A stretch of 64,000 nt of DNA. Source: Bacilli bacterium (lineage in GTDB: Bacteria > Bacillota_I > Bacilli_A > RF39 > UBA660). The position numbers were made by a program, and so were the translations under genes. The notes under the pieces are model-generated. The model ran no database searches, was not told the origin of the DNA, and saw nothing but the letters and a program-made list of their open reading frames with translations. Within the stretch, counting starts at the first letter, position 1. Every line of letters begins with the position of its first letter. The stretch is taken from assembly GCA_017934595.1 (NCBI GenBank), contig JAGBJG010000008.1, forward strand, positions 65,687 to 129,686, written 5' to 3'. This document shows, in pieces, positions 17,490 through 63,827 of the stretch.

Positions 17490-19259
17490 ATGTTAGGGAA
17501 TATAATAGGGATTGAAGAGAACTTAGTATTATTAAAACTTACAGATACTAATAGTGATAATTTATCTAATATGTATGTAACACTAGAAAATAGTGAAAAT
17601 ATATGTGTAGGTGAAATAGGTAATATAAAAGATGGTATTGCTTATATCAATTTATTAGGTGAAATTATTGATAGTAAATTTGTATTTGGTGTCATTAGAA
17701 AGCCATTAATGAATTCAAATGTTAGATTGATACCAACTGAAAAGGTACCTGCTATTATTTCATGCGATAATTCTGATGAATCTAAATATTTATATTTAGG
17801 TAAAAGTCCAATATATAAAGATGTAGATATTAATATACCAATTAACAAATTCTTTAGTAATCACTTTGCTATATTTGGATCAACTGGATCTGGTAAATCA
17901 TGTTCAGTATCAAGAATATTTCAAAATTTATATAGCAAGAGAAATGCGATTCCATATAAATCAACTATATTAATATTTGATGCATATGGTGAGTATCATC
18001 AAGCATTTTCTAAATTAAGTGAAGTTGCTCCAGAAATATCTTTTAAATCTTATACCACTAATACTAAATTTAGTGATACAGATATTATTAAAATACCTTT
18101 ATGGTTACTTGGAGTAGATGATTTAGCTTTATTATTAGGAGTTGAATCACATAACCAAATTCCAATTGTAGAAAAAGCTTTAAAGATAGTATCTATCTTT
18201 GGTAGAGAAGAATCTGAAGTTATTAAAAGTAAAAATGATATCATTGCCAGAGCTATTTTAGATATCTTAACTAGTGGTAGATCTGCATCTCAAATAAGAG
18301 ATCAAGTTGTATCAGTTTTATCTTACTATAACACAAAAGAATTAAATCTTGAAACACAAATATTCCAACCAGGTTATACAAGAACATTAAAACAATGTTT
18401 ACTTATTGATGCTAATGGCAAGATAAGAGAAATGGAATTATTAATGAATTTCATGAACTCTTTCTTAGATGATTCATTAGAATTAAATTTACCTGATGGA
18501 ACATTTGCTTATACATTAAAAGATTTATGTGATGCGATGGATTTTGCATTAATATCTGAAGGTGTATTAAAGAGTGATAAAATATTTGATGAATCTAATA
18601 TTTTAAAAGTAAGATTACATTCACTACTTAATAGTAATGAAGCAAGATATTTTGACGTTCCTGATTATATAACAAGAGATCAATATATCAGAAATTTACT
18701 TACAGCTACTAATGGTAGAAAAGCTCAAATAATTAACTTTAATATTAACTATGTTGATGATAGATTAGCTAAGACTATAACAAAGATATATTCAAAAATG
18801 TTCTTTGATTATGCTAAACAAATGGATGATAGAGGTTCCTTACCTTTCCATATTGTCTTAGAAGAAGCACATAGATATGTTCAAAATGATAATGATAATT
18901 TCTTATTAGGTTACAATATCTTTGAACGTATTACAAAAGAGGGTAGAAAGTATGGAGTTTTATTAGGATTAATATCTCAAAGACCTTCTGAACTTTCTGA
19001 AACTGCTTTATCTCAATGTAATAACTTCTTAATATTTAAGATGATTCATCCAAATGATATTGGATATATTAGAGAAATGGTTCCAAATATTACTGATGAA
19101 ATAGTTAAGAAAATTAAAATCTTACAACCAGGTACATGTATGGCATTTGGTCTTGCATTTAAAGTTCCGACAATTATTAAATTTGAAATGCCAAATCCAT
19201 CACCTGCGTCTAACTCAGCTAATATAGAAGAAAAATGGTTTATTAAAAAGAATGCGTGA
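17490..19259 (+). CDS. HerA-like P-loop ATPase, second paralog
   Basis: GSTGSGKS, LEEAHRYVQNDND, ISQRPSELSE motifs. The C-terminal ~150 aa are highly similar to 5426-7183. Confidence 0.65.
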   Translation: MLGNIIGIEENLVLLKLTDTNSDNLSNMYVTLENSENICVGEIGNIKDGIAYINLLGEIIDSKFVFGVIRKPLMNSNVRLIPTEKVPAIISCDNSDESKYLYLGKSPIYKDVDINIPINKFFSNHFAIFGSTGSGKSCSVSRIFQNLYSKRNAIPYKSTILIFDAYGEYHQAFSKLSEVAPEISFKSYTTNTKFSDTDIIKIPLWLLGVDDLALLLGVESHNQIPIVEKALKIVSIFGREESEVIKSKNDIIARAILDILTSGRSASQIRDQVVSVLSYYNTKELNLETQIFQPGYTRTLKQCLLIDANGKIREMELLMNFMNSFLDDSLELNLPDGTFAYTLKDLCDAMDFALISEGVLKSDKIFDESNILKVRLHSLLNSNEARYFDVPDYITRDQYIRNLLTATNGRKAQIINFNINYVDDRLAKTITKIYSKMFFDYAKQMDDRGSLPFHIVLEEAHRYVQNDNDNFLLGYNIFERITKEGRKYGVLLGLISQRPSELSETALSQCNNFLIFKMIHPNDIGYIREMVPNITDEIVKKIKILQPGTCMAFGLAFKVPTIIKFEMPNPSPASNSANIEEKWFIKKNA

Positions 19260-20652: not shown

Positions 20653-22044
20653 ATGAAGAAGAATAGTTTATTAAAAGCGATTCTAATTGCGTTTGGTATT
20701 GCTGTTATTCTAAGTTGGATTATTCCTGCTGGTGGATATAGTTCTGGTACATTTACTGCTGGTACTACTAATCCTGTAGGTATCATTAACTTATTTAGAT
20801 TACCAGTAATGACAATGCAAACATTCATTCAATACACTATTGTATTCTTAAGTATTGGTGCTTTATATGGCGTACTTAATAAAACTGGTGTATATGGTAA
20901 TATCGTTTCAGGTATTGCTAAAAAATGGAAAGGAAAAGAAAAAGCATTACTAGTAATTATTACTATTGCATTTGCGTTAATTGGTTCATTAACTGGATTA
21001 TCAGTATATGCATTCTTAATATTACCATTTGTAGCTGCTATCTTAATGATGGCTGGATTTGATAAATTTTCTAGTCTACTTGCTACAGTAGGTGCGTTAC
21101 TAGTAGGTGAAGCTGCATCAATTTTTGGATTCAGTGGAGCTGGATATATTATTAATGTATTTGGTCTTAAAATGACTGATGAAGTAATTACAAAAATAAT
21201 ATTATTTGTATTACTATTAGGTTTATACTTATTCTTTGTAATAAGAAAGAGTGTAGTAGGAAAGAAGAAAGAAGAAGAAATTCCATTCTTAGTAGTTGAA
21301 AAAGCTTCTAAGAAGAGTAAGATGCCATTAATCATTATATCTGTTGTATTCTTAATTATTTCATTAATTGGTATGTATAACTGGTATTATGGTTGGGGTG
21401 TAGAATTCTTCAATAACTTAGATACTAAGATTAGTTCTATTACTATTGGAACTTATCCAATTATGTCTAATATCTTAAATGGTGTATCTATTTTAGGATA
21501 TTGGGGTAACTATGAATTTGCAGTTGCTATCGTAATTGTAACATTCATTATTGCTTGGGTTTACAATGTTAAATTAGCTGATTTAGCTGAAGGCGCTAAA
21601 GATGGTATGAAAGAAATATTACCTGTTGCTATTTATGCAACTATCTGTAATATTATATTCACTGTTATGTTAGCTGATCAAAGTAATATGTATGCTACTA
21701 TTGTTAACTGGTTAAATGGTATTAAAGGTACATACAGTGTTCCAGTAGCATCATTAATTTCAGCATCAGGATCACTTTTCTATAATGATTTCTATTACTT
21801 ATTATATAATGCCGCTAATGTATTCAGTACATATGAAGCAGTATATTATCCAGTATTAGGAGTATTAACTACAGGTATCTTTGGTATCTTTATGATGGTA
21901 CTTCCTACAAGTGTTATGTTAGTAGCTGGATTAAAATACTTTAATGTTTCTTATACTGAATGGTTAAAGAAGATGTGGTTATATCTATTAGAAGCATTAG
22001 TAGTATTAATTATAGTAGTTATTGTAGTAACAATGATGATATAA
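20653..22044 (+). CDS. polytopic membrane transporter, YfcC-like family
   Basis: ~12 predicted TM helices; N-terminus resembles the YfcC (putative basic amino acid antiporter) family; RBS GGAGG. Confidence 0.5.
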   Translation: MKKNSLLKAILIAFGIAVILSWIIPAGGYSSGTFTAGTTNPVGIINLFRLPVMTMQTFIQYTIVFLSIGALYGVLNKTGVYGNIVSGIAKKWKGKEKALLVIITIAFALIGSLTGLSVYAFLILPFVAAILMMAGFDKFSSLLATVGALLVGEAASIFGFSGAGYIINVFGLKMTDEVITKIILFVLLLGLYLFFVIRKSVVGKKKEEEIPFLVVEKASKKSKMPLIIISVVFLIISLIGMYNWYYGWGVEFFNNLDTKISSITIGTYPIMSNILNGVSILGYWGNYEFAVAIVIVTFIIAWVYNVKLADLAEGAKDGMKEILPVAIYATICNIIFTVMLADQSNMYATIVNWLNGIKGTYSVPVASLISASGSLFYNDFYYLLYNAANVFSTYEAVYYPVLGVLTTGIFGIFMMVLPTSVMLVAGLKYFNVSYTEWLKKMWLYLLEALVVLIIVVIVVTMMI

Positions 22045-22094
22045 TAAATAATTAAAAAGGGATTAAATTAATCCCTTTTTGTGTGTATTTATGA
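22045..22094 (+). repeat. 50-bp direct repeat, copy 1 (contains terminator hairpin GGGATTAA-ATT-TTAATCCC plus T5)
   Basis: A near-identical copy lies at 22908-22958 (one extra A). Confidence 0.8.
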
Positions 22095-22126
22095 AAATGT
22101 GCATATAATATAAGTGAATATACTAT

Positions 22127-22155
22127 TTGACATTTATTATGTTTTATAGTATATT
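22127..22155 (+). promoter_or_regulatory. promoter TTGACA, 17-nt spacer, TATATT for the ToxI-like repeat RNA and toxin
   Basis: Perfect -35; followed by a small leader hairpin GCAUUU-GUG-AAAUGC at 22163-22177. Confidence 0.5.
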
Positions 22156-22183
22156 AAAGTTGCATTTGTGAAATGCAGTAGAT

Positions 22184-22296
22184 AAAAAAGCTGGTGATTC
22201 CCACCATAAGAGGAACCGAAAAAAGATAGTGATTCCGACTATGACAGGAACCGAAAAAAGATAGTGATTCCGACTATGACAGGAAACTAAAAAAGT
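22184..22296 (+). ncRNA. type III antitoxin-like RNA: 3.2 tandem 35-nt repeats starting AAAAAAG
   Basis: R1 22184-22218, R2 22219-22253, R3 22254-22288 (R2 and R3 differ at 2 positions; R1 is more divergent), then a partial 4th unit. Same architecture as ToxI/antiQ. Confidence 0.6.
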
Positions 22297-22330
22297 AACT
22301 AGAGAGCAAACTCTAGTTTTATTTTATATA
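22296..22330 (+). terminator. intrinsic terminator or attenuator between the repeat RNA and the toxin gene
   Basis: AACUAGAG-AGCAAA-CUCUAGUU hairpin followed by UUUUAUUUUAU. Confidence 0.6.
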
Positions 22331-22394
22331 TATTGCGAACAAATGTATTGTAAAAAGGAGTGCGTTATGTTAAAATAAATATAGAGGTGATAAT

Positions 22395-22894
22395 ATGAAC
22401 GGCTTTTTAATAGTCAAGGTAAATTCGAAGTATTGTGATTATTTAAGAAAATATGATAGTAAGGTTCCATATAATTCTGGATTAAAAGAATTAAGACCTT
22501 TTATTGGAGTGTTGTTTTATATTGATAATATGATGTATTTTGCGCCTCTATCAAGTCCTAAACCTAAACATCAACGATTGAGAGCTAAACCTGATTTGAT
22601 TAAAATTGATGATGGTAAACTTGGTGTAGTTAATCTAAATAATATGATCCCTGTTAAAGAAAATTTAATTGAATTAATAGATTTAGACAGAACTAGTGAT
22701 GATATATCAGAAAAACAATATATTAAATTATTAAAAAACAATTAAATTGGTTGAATCGTAATAAGGTAAAGATTAAAGAAAAATCTATTTCGTTATATGA
22801 TAAATATATTACTGGTAGATTAAATGTCTATGTAAAAGAAAGATGTTGTGATTTTAAATTACTTGAAGAAAAATGTATGAAATATAAGTTATAA
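22395..22894 (+). pseudogene. ToxN/AbiQ-family type III toxin (endoribonuclease), disrupted by a frameshift in an A6 run at 22733-22738
   Basis: The N-terminus SKYCDYLRKYDSKVP...FIGVLFYIDNMMYFAPLSSPK matches my recollection of ToxN. Frame 0 stops at 22745. The +1 frame continues for 51 aa to TAA at 22892-22894 and matches the ToxN C-terminus (CDFKLLEEK), restoring ~167 aa. Confidence 0.65.
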
Positions 22895-22907
22895 GGATGT
22901 ATAATAT

Positions 22908-22958
22908 TAAATAATTAAAAAAGGGATTAAATTAATCCCTTTTTGTGTGTATTTATGA
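22908..22958 (+). repeat. direct repeat, copy 2 (51 bp) with the terminator hairpin
   Basis: Identical to 22045-22094 except for one extra A. Confidence 0.8.
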
Positions 22959-22996
22959 TATAATATATAGGTATTAGTTTAAAGGAGGGAATCCCT

Positions 22997-23299
22997 ATGT
23001 TATCTAAAAATGAAGTAGATCATGTAGCTGATTTAGCTAGATTACATGTTGACGAAGCTGAATATGAGTTATATGAAAAACAATTATATGATATATTATC
23101 AGAAATTAAAAAAATAGAAGATGTTGATGTTGAGGGAGAAACTGAAATTATGATATCTCCATCAACAAATAAAAATACATATTCAAATGATTCAATTGGA
23201 CCAATGCTTTCAACAAGTGATGTATTAAAAAACGCTAAACATACTAATGGTGATTTTATTGTTGTGCCTAGAGTAGTTGCTGATTCTGAGGAGATATAA
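22997..23299 (+). CDS. gatC: Asp/Glu-tRNA amidotransferase subunit C
   Basis: Typical GatC N-terminus VDHVADLARLHVDEAE; first gene of gatCAB. Confidence 0.85.
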   Translation: MLSKNEVDHVADLARLHVDEAEYELYEKQLYDILSEIKKIEDVDVEGETEIMISPSTNKNTYSNDSIGPMLSTSDVLKNAKHTNGDFIVVPRVVADSEEI

Positions 23300-37752: not shown

Positions 37753-37828
37753 TGGATTGTTAGCTCAGTTGGTAGAGCAACTGACTCTTAATCAGTGGGT
37801 CTAGGGTTCGAGTCCCTAACAGTCCACC
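37753..37828 (+). tRNA. tRNA-Lys (anticodon CTT)
   Basis: Acceptor GGATTGT/ACAGTCC, anticodon loop CTCTTAA, T-loop TTCGAGT, CCA end. Confidence 0.8.
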
Positions 37829-37921
37829 ATTTATGTTTATTACTGATTTTTTGTTTATTTTGTGTAAAAAGGTATTGCCAAAACGCATAAAATAATATAT
37901 AATTAAAAAGTCAGTTGAATT

Positions 37922-37998
<77 letters not shown>

Positions 37999-38002
37999 AA
38001 TT

Positions 38003-38079
38003 GCCTTAATAGCTCAGTTGGTTAGAGCACTTGACTGTTAATCAAGGGGTCGTAGGTTCGAGTCCTACTTGGGGCGCCA
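38003..38079 (+). tRNA. tRNA-Asn (anticodon GTT)
   Basis: Acceptor GCCTTAA/TTGGGGC, anticodon loop CTGTTAA, CCA end. Confidence 0.85.
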
Positions 38080-38083
38080 TTCT

Positions 38084-38160
38084 GGCCAGTTGGTGAAGTG
38101 GCTTAACACACTGCCCTTTCACGGCAGCATTCATGGGTCCGAATCCCGTACTGGTCACCA
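38084..38160 (+). tRNA. tRNA-Glu (anticodon TTC)
   Basis: Acceptor GGCCAGT/ACTGGTC, anticodon loop CTTTCAC, T-loop TCCGAAT; terminator hairpin follows at 38172-38200. Confidence 0.85.
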
Positions 38161-60492: not shown

Positions 60493-60569
60493 GGCCTGTT
60501 GGTGAAGTGGTTTAACACATAGCCCTCTCAAGGCTACACACATGGGTCCGAATCCCATACAGGCTACCA
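60493..60569 (+). tRNA. tRNA-Glu (anticodon CTC)
   Basis: Close paralog of the tRNA-Glu at 38084-38160 but with anticodon loop CTCTCAA; terminator ACACCAUUAUGGUGU plus U-tract follows. Confidence 0.8.
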
Positions 60570-62815: not shown

Positions 62816-63559
62816 ATGGATAATAAAACACAAGAAATATATATAAATTTAGATGATTCTGGGAAGTTGACTTCAAATGAAAAAATTTCTGTCTATGGTG
62901 GTTTATTATTTTTTTCCAAAAAAGAAAAAGATAAATTTATAACACAATATAGAAGTATAATAAATGATATAAAATGTAAATATTGTCATTGTTCTGCTGA
63001 TAATTGTAGCAAGAAATGTCCGGAAATTAAAAATACAAATATCCGACCAGTTGATAAAAGACGTATAATGAATTATATAAAAAAGTATTATGTGATCGCA
63101 TTAATTATTAAAAATGATGATGTATATGAACATATAAAAAATAATAAAGCGGCAAAAGGGAGATTTACGGATTATGCTATTCGAAGATTAATAAAAGAGA
63201 CGATTATTTCGTTGGTTAAATCAAAAGGATTAAATCCAAACATGCCCGTTAAATTAATTATAAATATTGATCAACAAAGTACAAAGAGTAATGGATATTA
63301 TAATTTGCATGATGGGTTGGTTGAGGAACTAAAAATAGGATTTAATAATTTTAATTATTCTTTTCAAATAAAACCGGTTTTAAGTGGTGATTTAGAACTT
63401 GATATTTCATATCAAGATTCTGGTAAAAGCTATGTCGTTCAGGCTGCGGATTTACTAGCTGGTACAATAAGAAAAAAATCATTAGATGCACTTTTGAGTA
63501 ACCAAGATATACACAATGAATTATCAGAATTTGTTGATTTTAAAATAATTTTACCATAA
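62816..63559 (+). CDS. DUF3800-family protein
   Basis: N-terminal IYINLDDSGK and C-terminal VQAADLLAGTIRK match the DUF3800 termini. Confidence 0.55.
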   Translation: MDNKTQEIYINLDDSGKLTSNEKISVYGGLLFFSKKEKDKFITQYRSIINDIKCKYCHCSADNCSKKCPEIKNTNIRPVDKRRIMNYIKKYYVIALIIKNDDVYEHIKNNKAAKGRFTDYAIRRLIKETIISLVKSKGLNPNMPVKLIINIDQQSTKSNGYYNLHDGLVEELKIGFNNFNYSFQIKPVLSGDLELDISYQDSGKSYVVQAADLLAGTIRKKSLDALLSNQDIHNELSEFVDFKIILP

Positions 63560-63561
63560 GA

Positions 63562-63671
63562 AAAAAGGCAACTAAGTGTTGCCTTTTCCCAGTTAGGGCG
63601 ACGTACATACAGCACGCTTAATTTATTAAAATCGACACCTAACTATCGACCTGACAAGATTTCTCTCCGGT
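63562..63671 (-). ncRNA. candidate ~110-nt sRNA (minus strand) in a 270-nt gap between convergent genes
   Basis: Minus-strand promoter TTGACA (63706-63701), 17-nt spacer, TATCAT (63683-63678); relatively GC-rich body; terminator GGCAACACUUAGUUGCC plus U6 ending ~63562. Confidence 0.3.
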
Positions 63672-63827
63672 ACATCAATGATACTATAAAAAAATATTTT
63701 TGTCAATATAAGTATCATTGTATTATTATCTTATGTAATAAAAAAAGAAATATGTATTGCATTAAAATATAATCGTAAATAATAGTAAAAAATAAAAGAG
63801 GTCAACATGTTGACACTCTTGGGAGTT

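Follow-up and report, generated by a model that had tools for sequence, protein, structure and literature searches.

The stretch of DNA analysed here, referred to as the window, comprises 64,000 nucleotides (nt) of contig JAGBJG010000008.1 from an uncultured low-GC gut Bacilli bacterium. Positions 22095-22894 of its + strand hold a chromosomal type III toxin-antitoxin (TA) cassette of the ToxIN kind, in which a promoter, a 5' hairpin, three 35-nt repeats with a terminal A-run, a terminator and a split toxN gene follow one another on the same strand. The locus displays every property by which Blower et al. 2012 recognize a ToxIN locus (PMC3401426). An intact translatable toxin open reading frame (ORF) with the residues for activity is absent, as a stop codon follows residue 116. 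The combined evidence makes it probable that this is a chromosomal ToxIN cassette of the clade nearest to the ToxIN of Bacillus thuringiensis, which is present as a strain-variable insertion and was inactivated recently. The elements of the cassette are as follows.

22095-22894, + strand: the inserted ToxIN cassette, which begins about 32 nt before the -35 hexamer and ends with the toxN stop codon
22127-22155, + strand: promoter of the sigma-70 type, TTGACA-17-TATATT, matching at 11/12 positions
22160-22178, + strand: leader hairpin where the transcript is predicted to begin, minimum free energy (MFE) -5.3 kcal/mol, z = -1.95
22184-22218, 22219-22253 and 22254-22288, + strand: ToxI-like array of three 35-nt units, each opening with AAAAAAG
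22289-22295, + strand: terminal AAAAAAG (the '0.2' copy), which runs into the terminator
22297-22330, + strand: intrinsic terminator between the array and toxN, with its stem at 22297-22318 followed by a T-run
22384-22389, + strand: ribosome-binding site GAGGTG, read from the sequence and separated by 5 nt from the toxN ATG that follows
22395-22745, + strand: 5' part of toxN, a 116-amino-acid (aa) ORF with a premature TAA, PF13958 E=2.4e-34, profile positions 3-111
22733-22738, + strand: A6 run, the site of a 1-nt deletion; the nearest intact relatives have A7
22739-22894, + strand: 3' part of toxN in the -1 frame, from Q116 to L166 plus the stop codon, PF13958 E=8.9e-10, profile positions 109-159

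The addition of one A to the A6 run yields a protein of 166 aa. It matches the Pfam family PF13958 (ToxN_toxin) over profile positions 3-159 of 159 with E=6e-49 and the AbiQ model of PADLOC with 2e-40; a search of the repaired protein against NCBIfam gave no match. Each of the two native fragments exceeds the Pfam cut-off of 25 bits by itself, and the parts of the profile that they cover adjoin. Of the solved relatives, 4ATO ranks highest (1e-24), followed by 7D8O (4e-20), 2XD0 (5e-18) and AbiQ, 4GLK (2e-10). As the protein matches these four solved ToxN/AbiQ structures at the level of sequence, its fold is already settled.

The active-site residues of ToxN are listed in PMC8860590. Alignment to the toxins of Pectobacterium atrosepticum (ToxN_Pa) and B. 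thuringiensis (ToxN_Bt) gives as their equivalents R34, the residues S53-S54-P55-K56 within the motif APLSSPK, and Q116. The last of these aligns with Gln117 of the Escherichia coli toxin (ToxN_Ec), the replacement of which by Ala abolishes toxicity (PMC8860590). The 116-aa fragment keeps the equivalents R34, S53, S54 and K56, and Q116 is situated just beyond the frameshift.

Tandem Repeats Finder places the array at 22184-22295 with a period of 35, 3.2 copies, 89% matches and a score of 168. This is the top-scoring tandem repeat in the 64 kb, and the runner-up scores 64. In each unit, an A-run precedes a hairpin, and the complementarity of a 3' arm to the loop of this hairpin gives the arrangement of a pseudoknot. 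ToxN_Bt cleaves at A/AAAA and AbiQ at A/AAA (PMC5086642), and these published specificities fit the A6 run present at every unit boundary. The terminal AAAAAAG is predicted to be the last processing site, where unit 3 would be released.

A protein search for relatives of the toxin returned 2013 hits (protein clusters). Relatives are encoded on over 567 genome stretches, most of which belong to metagenome-assembled genomes (MAGs) of gut Bacilli, Clostridia and 'Tenericutes'. Among 84 related loci fetched to examine the array, 80 have a 34-40 nt repeat array upstream of toxN, and three of the four loci that lack one have truncated upstream DNA. Three full units are the most frequent arrangement (51 of the 80 loci). 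Array tails were printed for 12 loci, and in each of them an A-run comes after the last unit and passes directly into the terminator.

An alignment (A3) of 129 distinct units, each including its genuine next A-run, supports a fold of each unit into a hairpin and a pseudoknot, as predicted from the pattern of sequence change; a pseudoknot with single-stranded tails is the form expected of a ToxIN repeat unit. An A-rich run bounds every one of the 129 units. The hairpin core, composed of the pairs 10-22 (GC 100, AU 28, GU 1), 11-21 (GC in all 129) and 12-20 (UG 60, UA 54, CG 15), is paired in 100% of the units and displays compensatory change. The pseudoknot is formed by pair 16-37 (UA 113, CG 7, UG 5, GC 2, AU 1, unpaired in a single unit), pair 17-36 (CG in 124 units) and pair 18-35 (CG in 129). 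At 0.216, the score for covariation exceeds the maximum of 0.057 obtained with slid registers and was reached by none of 500 shuffles. The role of column 19 varies: it closes the hairpin by pairing with column 13 in just 38 units and extends the pseudoknot by pairing with column 34 in 60. Support is poor for pairs 8-28 and 9-27 of the outer hairpin (56% paired). As these outer pairs and pair 13-19 are weak, only a hairpin core of 3 base pairs (bp) and a pseudoknot helix of 3-4 bp are claimed.

All three units of the window satisfy the core pairs. Folding of single units by ViennaRNA gives the same hairpin, and the centroid of unit 2 has the UUCC/GGAA pairing instead. Rfam gave no match on the repeats, either with permissive thresholds on 21900-23100 or with gathering thresholds on the whole window; the local matches were all weak and were to the flanking terminators. 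The RNA antitoxin is the only unannotated part of the cassette, and no Rfam family detects it.

The signals that surround the array are conserved as well. The promoter hexamers are identical and equally placed in the relatives L002 and L003. In this AT-rich DNA, promoter-like sites show no enrichment as a class (12 found, 10.4 expected), so the promoter is called on the quality of its match and its conservation in relatives. Terminator-like sites are strongly enriched (7 found, 0.1 expected). The terminator between the array and toxN has a stem of 8 bp with 3 GC pairs, lies 65 nt upstream of the ATG and folds with an MFE of -9.7 kcal/mol (z = -2.9; 0/200 shuffles as stable). Among the 12 relatives printed, 9 have its stem, ACTAGAG...CTCTAGT, with little or no change.

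Two side observations concern these signals. The terminator is kept in sequence and not in structure alone (ACTAGAGAGCAnACTCTAGTTTT) in those nine printed loci, the toxins of which are just 55-75% identical. In two more loci the stems are spelled differently yet still pair (CAGAG/CTCTG in L010 and TTAGAG/CTCTAA in L011), and in L003 a terminator that looks similar to the inter-gene one (CTAGAGTTATACTCTAG) ends the gene that precedes the cassette. The array tails concerned include those of L002, L003, L005-L011 and L014. The leader hairpin, of the type TTGC...GCAA, is positioned between the -10 hexamer and the first repeat and is found also in L002, L003, L005, L007-L010 and L016. A hairpin at the leader position is frequent in the family, with an MFE of -4 kcal/mol or lower in 50 of 77 loci. 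It may act as a 5' stabilizer or set the first processing site. No mention of it was found in a limited search of the type III TA literature.

An initial annotation of this DNA, made from the sequence alone, had described a type III TA locus with a promoter, a repeat array, a terminator and a frameshifted ToxN-like toxin. That description holds, as do the positions that it gave for the elements, including the promoter at 22127-22155. The profile search that it named as a check matched ToxN_toxin end to end. The repaired protein is 166 aa long and not 167 aa, as had been given. The statement that protein-only annotation would miss the system was mistaken: NCBI nr holds MBP3259072.1, identical to the 116-aa product, and MBP3259073.1 (47 aa), contained in the 3' part, as adjacent entries that are both named 'type III toxin-antitoxin system ToxN/AbiQ family toxin'.

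By analogy with the characterised systems, it is possible to describe how an intact cassette would operate. Transcription from the promoter at 22127-22155 would give an RNA that begins with the small hairpin, followed by three 35-nt ToxI units between A-runs. The terminator at 22297-22330 would stop most transcripts, and the read-through would constitute the toxN message. As most transcripts stop at the terminator, the RNA antitoxin would be in excess. The ToxN endoribonuclease would then cut the precursor within the A-runs. Once released, a unit would fold into a hairpin-type pseudoknot and link two ToxN molecules to give a closed complex without activity. A halt of transcription, as upon phage infection, would let the RNA decay, and free ToxN would then cleave A-rich RNAs and arrest the cell.

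The allele present in the window differs by a single nucleotide. At the site of the A6 run, the intact genes of L002 and L104 read AAA TTA TTA AAA AAA CAA, and the closest intact relatives, P0001 and P0122, are 74% identical as proteins. As the nearest intact relatives have A7, the run in the window must have been shortened from A7 by the loss of one A. Translation of this allele would end after 116 residues, just before the Gln that toxicity requires. Since toxN is truncated before Q116, the locus most likely makes antitoxin RNA and no active toxin: judged from the sequence, the toxin has most likely been inactivated by the homopolymer deletion, with the antitoxin RNA gene intact.

The frameshift itself is real and is not a one-off error. 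An independent assembly from ENA (L001) is identical to the window over 6351 nt, the 116-aa product is found on 7 contigs, and the intact 166-aa sequence is absent from a collection of about 15 billion proteins. Homopolymer indels are a common type of error, and the frame downstream looks healthy, as would be the case if sequencing or assembly had split a gene that is really intact. Against the agreement of the seven contigs and the independent assembly, and with the NCBI MAG record split likewise, such an error is very improbable.

A number of observations weigh against simple inactivation of the toxin. Past the frameshift, 52 codons of AT-rich DNA are free of stop codons, and 15/15 family-invariant residues are kept in the 3' part. 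The identity of this part to L002 is 65% as compared to 76% for the N-terminal part, a difference that is not clear. As the 3' part shows no decay, the break would be either very recent or partly bypassed. The site reads, in the zero frame of toxN, as the canonical -1 slippery heptamer A_AAA_AAC (22733-22739), so that some full-length ToxN could still form. The same frameshift occurs at every occupied site seen, and an intact allele is not known; this uniformity also fits selection for the present state and not simple decay. Furthermore, as the catalytic Ser/Ser/Lys cluster is kept, the 116-aa fragment may possess residual activity.

Alternatively, the toxin might not be dead and the A-run might be a switch or a recoding site: ribosomes could shift to the -1 frame on A_AAA_AAC, transcription could slip, or slipped-strand mutation could alternate reversibly between A6 and A7. 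Full-length ToxN would then be made at a low or switchable level, and the locus would be a working, down-tuned ToxIN. A -1 shift leads to ...LLKNQLNW... and to exactly the family length, the downstream frame is fully open, and all 7 occupied contigs are in the same state. The heptamer is, however, not independent evidence, because A7-C losing one A creates the motif automatically. No stimulatory structure was found past it: the fold of 22732-22810 has an MFE of -8.3 kcal/mol and z = -1.36, and 21/200 shuffles are as stable. None of the 82 relatives examined is split at this site, and an A7 run is present in 5 of them only. Of the marks of a programmed -1 frameshift, the locus thus has the slippery heptamer and lacks the stimulatory structure and the conserved split. 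Six or seven A's are, moreover, short for efficient transcriptional slippage or phase variation. With a heptamer that arises automatically, no stimulatory structure found and relatives that are not split, recoding or phase variation is unlikely. Slightly less likely still is that the single-A deletion represents a maintained low-expression or switchable state, operated through the A6 tract, and not decay; the tract would allow a small share of ribosomes or transcripts to regain full-length ToxN, or would alternate between A6 and A7 within the population. If true, the toxin dose would be set by recoding or phase variation and not by the terminator only, and both the frameshift shared by all occupied sites and the 15 invariant residues kept in 52 codons would be explained.

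A further possibility shares with the preferred explanation a dead toxin and adds selection on the RNA: the orphan ToxI array might be kept for its own sake, to neutralize a related ToxN of a plasmid or phage (anti-addiction or immunity). Although the toxin is broken, the promoter, the leader and the terminator are intact, and so are all three units and their pairings. Full arrays with shortened toxins have been reported (Blower et al. 2012, PMC3401426), and ToxN relatives are very common in related gut genomes. ToxI-type antitoxins are, however, highly specific for their own toxin (PMC5086642), which limits cross-protection, and an intact array is equally to be expected if the frameshift is merely recent. 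The loci compared here provide no evidence that toxin-less arrays are maintained, and upkeep of the array is about as doubtful as recoding of the toxin. The repeats could also be thought of as an element acting at the level of DNA, such as protein-binding iterons or a degenerate CRISPR-like array, which lies beside toxN by chance. Nothing beyond their tandem arrangement speaks for this. The array is on the toxN strand between a promoter and a terminator, accompanies ToxN in 80/84 loci and contains no spacers, and the compensatory changes preserve the hairpin and the pseudoknot, which leaves a chance neighbour with hardly any probability.

The recently inactivated cassette, as it is here understood, is also an insertion that can be seen in its occupied and empty states. 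The neighbours of the cassette are a radical-SAM protein gene, the DcuC-like gene and gatCAB, and no integrase or transposase gene adjoins it. The features of the insertion site are the following.

20653-22044: DcuC-like transporter gene (Pfam DcuC), upstream neighbour of the cassette
22045-22094: left copy of the duplicated target, a segment that includes the bidirectional terminator of the transporter gene (palindrome at 22054-22080)
22908-22958: right copy of the same segment, in which the terminator palindrome spans 22918-22944, upstream of gatC
22997-23299: gatC (GatC), downstream neighbour of the cassette

The two copies form a perfect 41-nt direct repeat (22054-22094 and 22918-22958), which extends to about 50 nt with one A indel. 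The right copy now serves as the terminator after toxN. A look-up of the exact GatC protein identified seven contigs with empty sites (L091, L092, L093, L094, L096, L098 and L099), in which the transporter gene leads directly to gatC through one terminator and ToxN is missing. In these contigs GatC is identical, the flanks are 96-99% identical to the window, and the segment is present in a single copy. The homology to the intact cassettes of L002 and L104, which reside in unrelated contexts, spans window positions 22094-22887 and coincides with the inserted segment. The 0.8-kb cassette is therefore a strain-variable insertion at the terminator between the DcuC-like gene and gatC.

No flanking direct repeats longer than 17 nt were found around the cassette in 73 other loci, so the duplication of about 50 nt is peculiar to this insertion and is no trait of the family. 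Apparent flanking 'repeats' of 430 nt in L039 and L083 are slicing artefacts of loci with short upstream DNA. The terminator was also considered as a dispersed repeat, and this was rejected, as it occurs only twice in the window. The length of the duplication exceeds that of the usual target duplication of transposons, and no recombinase gene is adjacent. A weaker similarity reaches about 20 nt further left (22025 and 22887), and owing to this extension the toxN stop codon may come from the duplicated target sequence. Possibly, the cassette was inserted by a single crossover with a circular intermediate that carried the segment of about 50 nt; a duplication associated with repair is an alternative possibility. 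A close phage or viral source of the cassette was not found in the searches, which gave weak matches only: 172 nt to a Clostridioides phage-plasmid and one viral contig at 44% identity.

Four Logan contigs (L095, L097, L101 and L102) match the window at 100% identity and break off at 22083 or begin at 22929. These are presumably the positions to be expected from a 41-nt exact repeat in a k=31 assembly graph, which suggests that the samples concerned also carry the occupied site. If the 41-nt repeat breaks the graph in this way, the cassette may be under-represented in short-contig assemblies.

The ToxIN family, its operon logic and its structures are known, and both toxin fragments had already been named. 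Since the family, logic and structures are well described, the locus adds little as a ToxIN. Genomes of uncultured gut Bacilli, Clostridia and 'Tenericutes' abound in the clade that resembles the B. thuringiensis system, which keeps with striking uniformity to an arrangement of about three units, an A-run and a terminator. The alignment of 129 units with its covariation-supported pseudoknot pairs could seed an RNA family model. The comparison of occupied and empty sites is clean, and the promoter-to-stop ToxIN module of 0.8 kb acts in it as a discrete insertion. The RNA alignment and this comparison are useful by-products and not surprises, of modest weight. The allele is a natural toxin knock-out by homopolymer deletion with an intact antitoxin, and is useful for asking whether orphan ToxI arrays persist.

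Elsewhere in the window, an Rfam DUF3800-I RNA motif is present at 63553-63678 on the - strand (60.9 bits, gathering threshold 44.2). A cluster of four tRNA genes lies at 37754-38157 on the + strand, with isolated tRNA genes at 293-366 and 60493-60566. Some 3 kb before the cassette, positions 17490-19259 of the + strand encode a HerA-like DUF87 ATPase of 589 aa. ATPases of the HerA type are found in some defence systems, but this one may be a housekeeping protein, because the product of the neighbouring gene is a YqeH/RsgA-like GTPase.

The characterised systems with which the locus can be compared include those of the solved complexes 4ATO (ToxIN_Bt) and 2XDD (ToxIN_Pa; PMC5086642). ToxIN_Pa, from P. 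atrosepticum plasmid pECA1039 (2XD0/2XDD; ToxI 36 nt x 5.5; cleavage at AA/AU), shares with the locus the operon logic and the fold family of the toxin. The toxins match with E=5e-18, and the motif APL(T/S)SPK and the Gln of helix 4 are conserved. The Pectobacterium ToxI (36 nt x 5.6 as read) is, however, unrelated in sequence and has no A6 boundary, and the system is plasmid-borne with an intact toxin.

The repeat arrays of the reference plasmids were compared directly. The design of the window's unit, which consists of an A-run, GGTG, a loop, ACC, a linker and the complement of the loop, is common to the arrays of pAW63 (34 nt x 3.1: AAAAAATTGGTGTAACTCTACCGTAGTGAGTACC), a Lactococcus lactis plasmid (36 nt x 3.1: AAAAAAGCGGTGAATCTCCACCATCAAGTGAGAATC) and a Fusobacterium plasmid (37 nt x 3.4).

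The initial annotation had considered the repeat unit length and copy number of the locus closest to AbiQ. AbiQ/antiQ of L. lactis pSRQ900 (4GLK; antiQ 35 nt x 2.8) belongs to the same family, PF13958. The antiQ unit has the same length as that of the window and nearly the same copy number (PMC5086642), and to this extent the assignment stands. AbiQ and the window's toxin also share a Ser in place of Thr at the first active-site position (alignment; PMC5086642). It does not extend to the protein, which is far more distant from AbiQ (4GLK, E=1.9e-10, 44.5 bits) than from 4ATO, and the RNA has the design of the ToxI array of pAW63. The lactococcal AbiQ-like array of L087 (37 nt), which stands in for antiQ itself in this comparison, differs in unit sequence.

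As a separate observation, the ToxN/AbiQ-family ORFs of L087 (Lactococcus plasmid pLLWG2A) and L088 (a Fusobacterium plasmid) are unusually long, with about 542 and 290 aa, and each is still preceded by an array of 37 nt x 3.1-3.4. Their lengths suggest fusions of ToxN to extra domains.

Shortened toxins had been noted before in type III loci whose antitoxin arrays are full (Blower et al. 2012, PMC3401426). As in the present locus, a complete array and terminator stand beside a partial toxin ORF. Those examples are, however, mostly cptIN loci with remnants of 45-66 aa, whereas the break here is a single-base homopolymer deletion in a gene that is otherwise pristine.

The system most similar to the locus is ToxIN_Bt, from B. 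thuringiensis plasmid pAW63 (4ATO; ToxI 34 nt x 2.9), which has the closest solved toxin (E=1.1e-24, 90.9 bits, residues 9-165). The two arrays agree in having about three repeats before an A-run and a terminator and in the design of the unit, and the A-rich unit boundary of the window matches the A/AAAA specificity (PMC5086642). The identity of the proteins is only about 36%. The unit of the window is 35 nt long compared to 34 nt and has a shorter loop, with a pseudoknot of UUCC/GGAA instead of ACUC/GAGU. Furthermore, ToxIN_Bt is carried by a conjugative plasmid, whereas the locus of the window is chromosomal and its toxin gene is frameshifted. By the likeness of its protein and the predicted design of its RNA, the locus groups with ToxIN_Bt.

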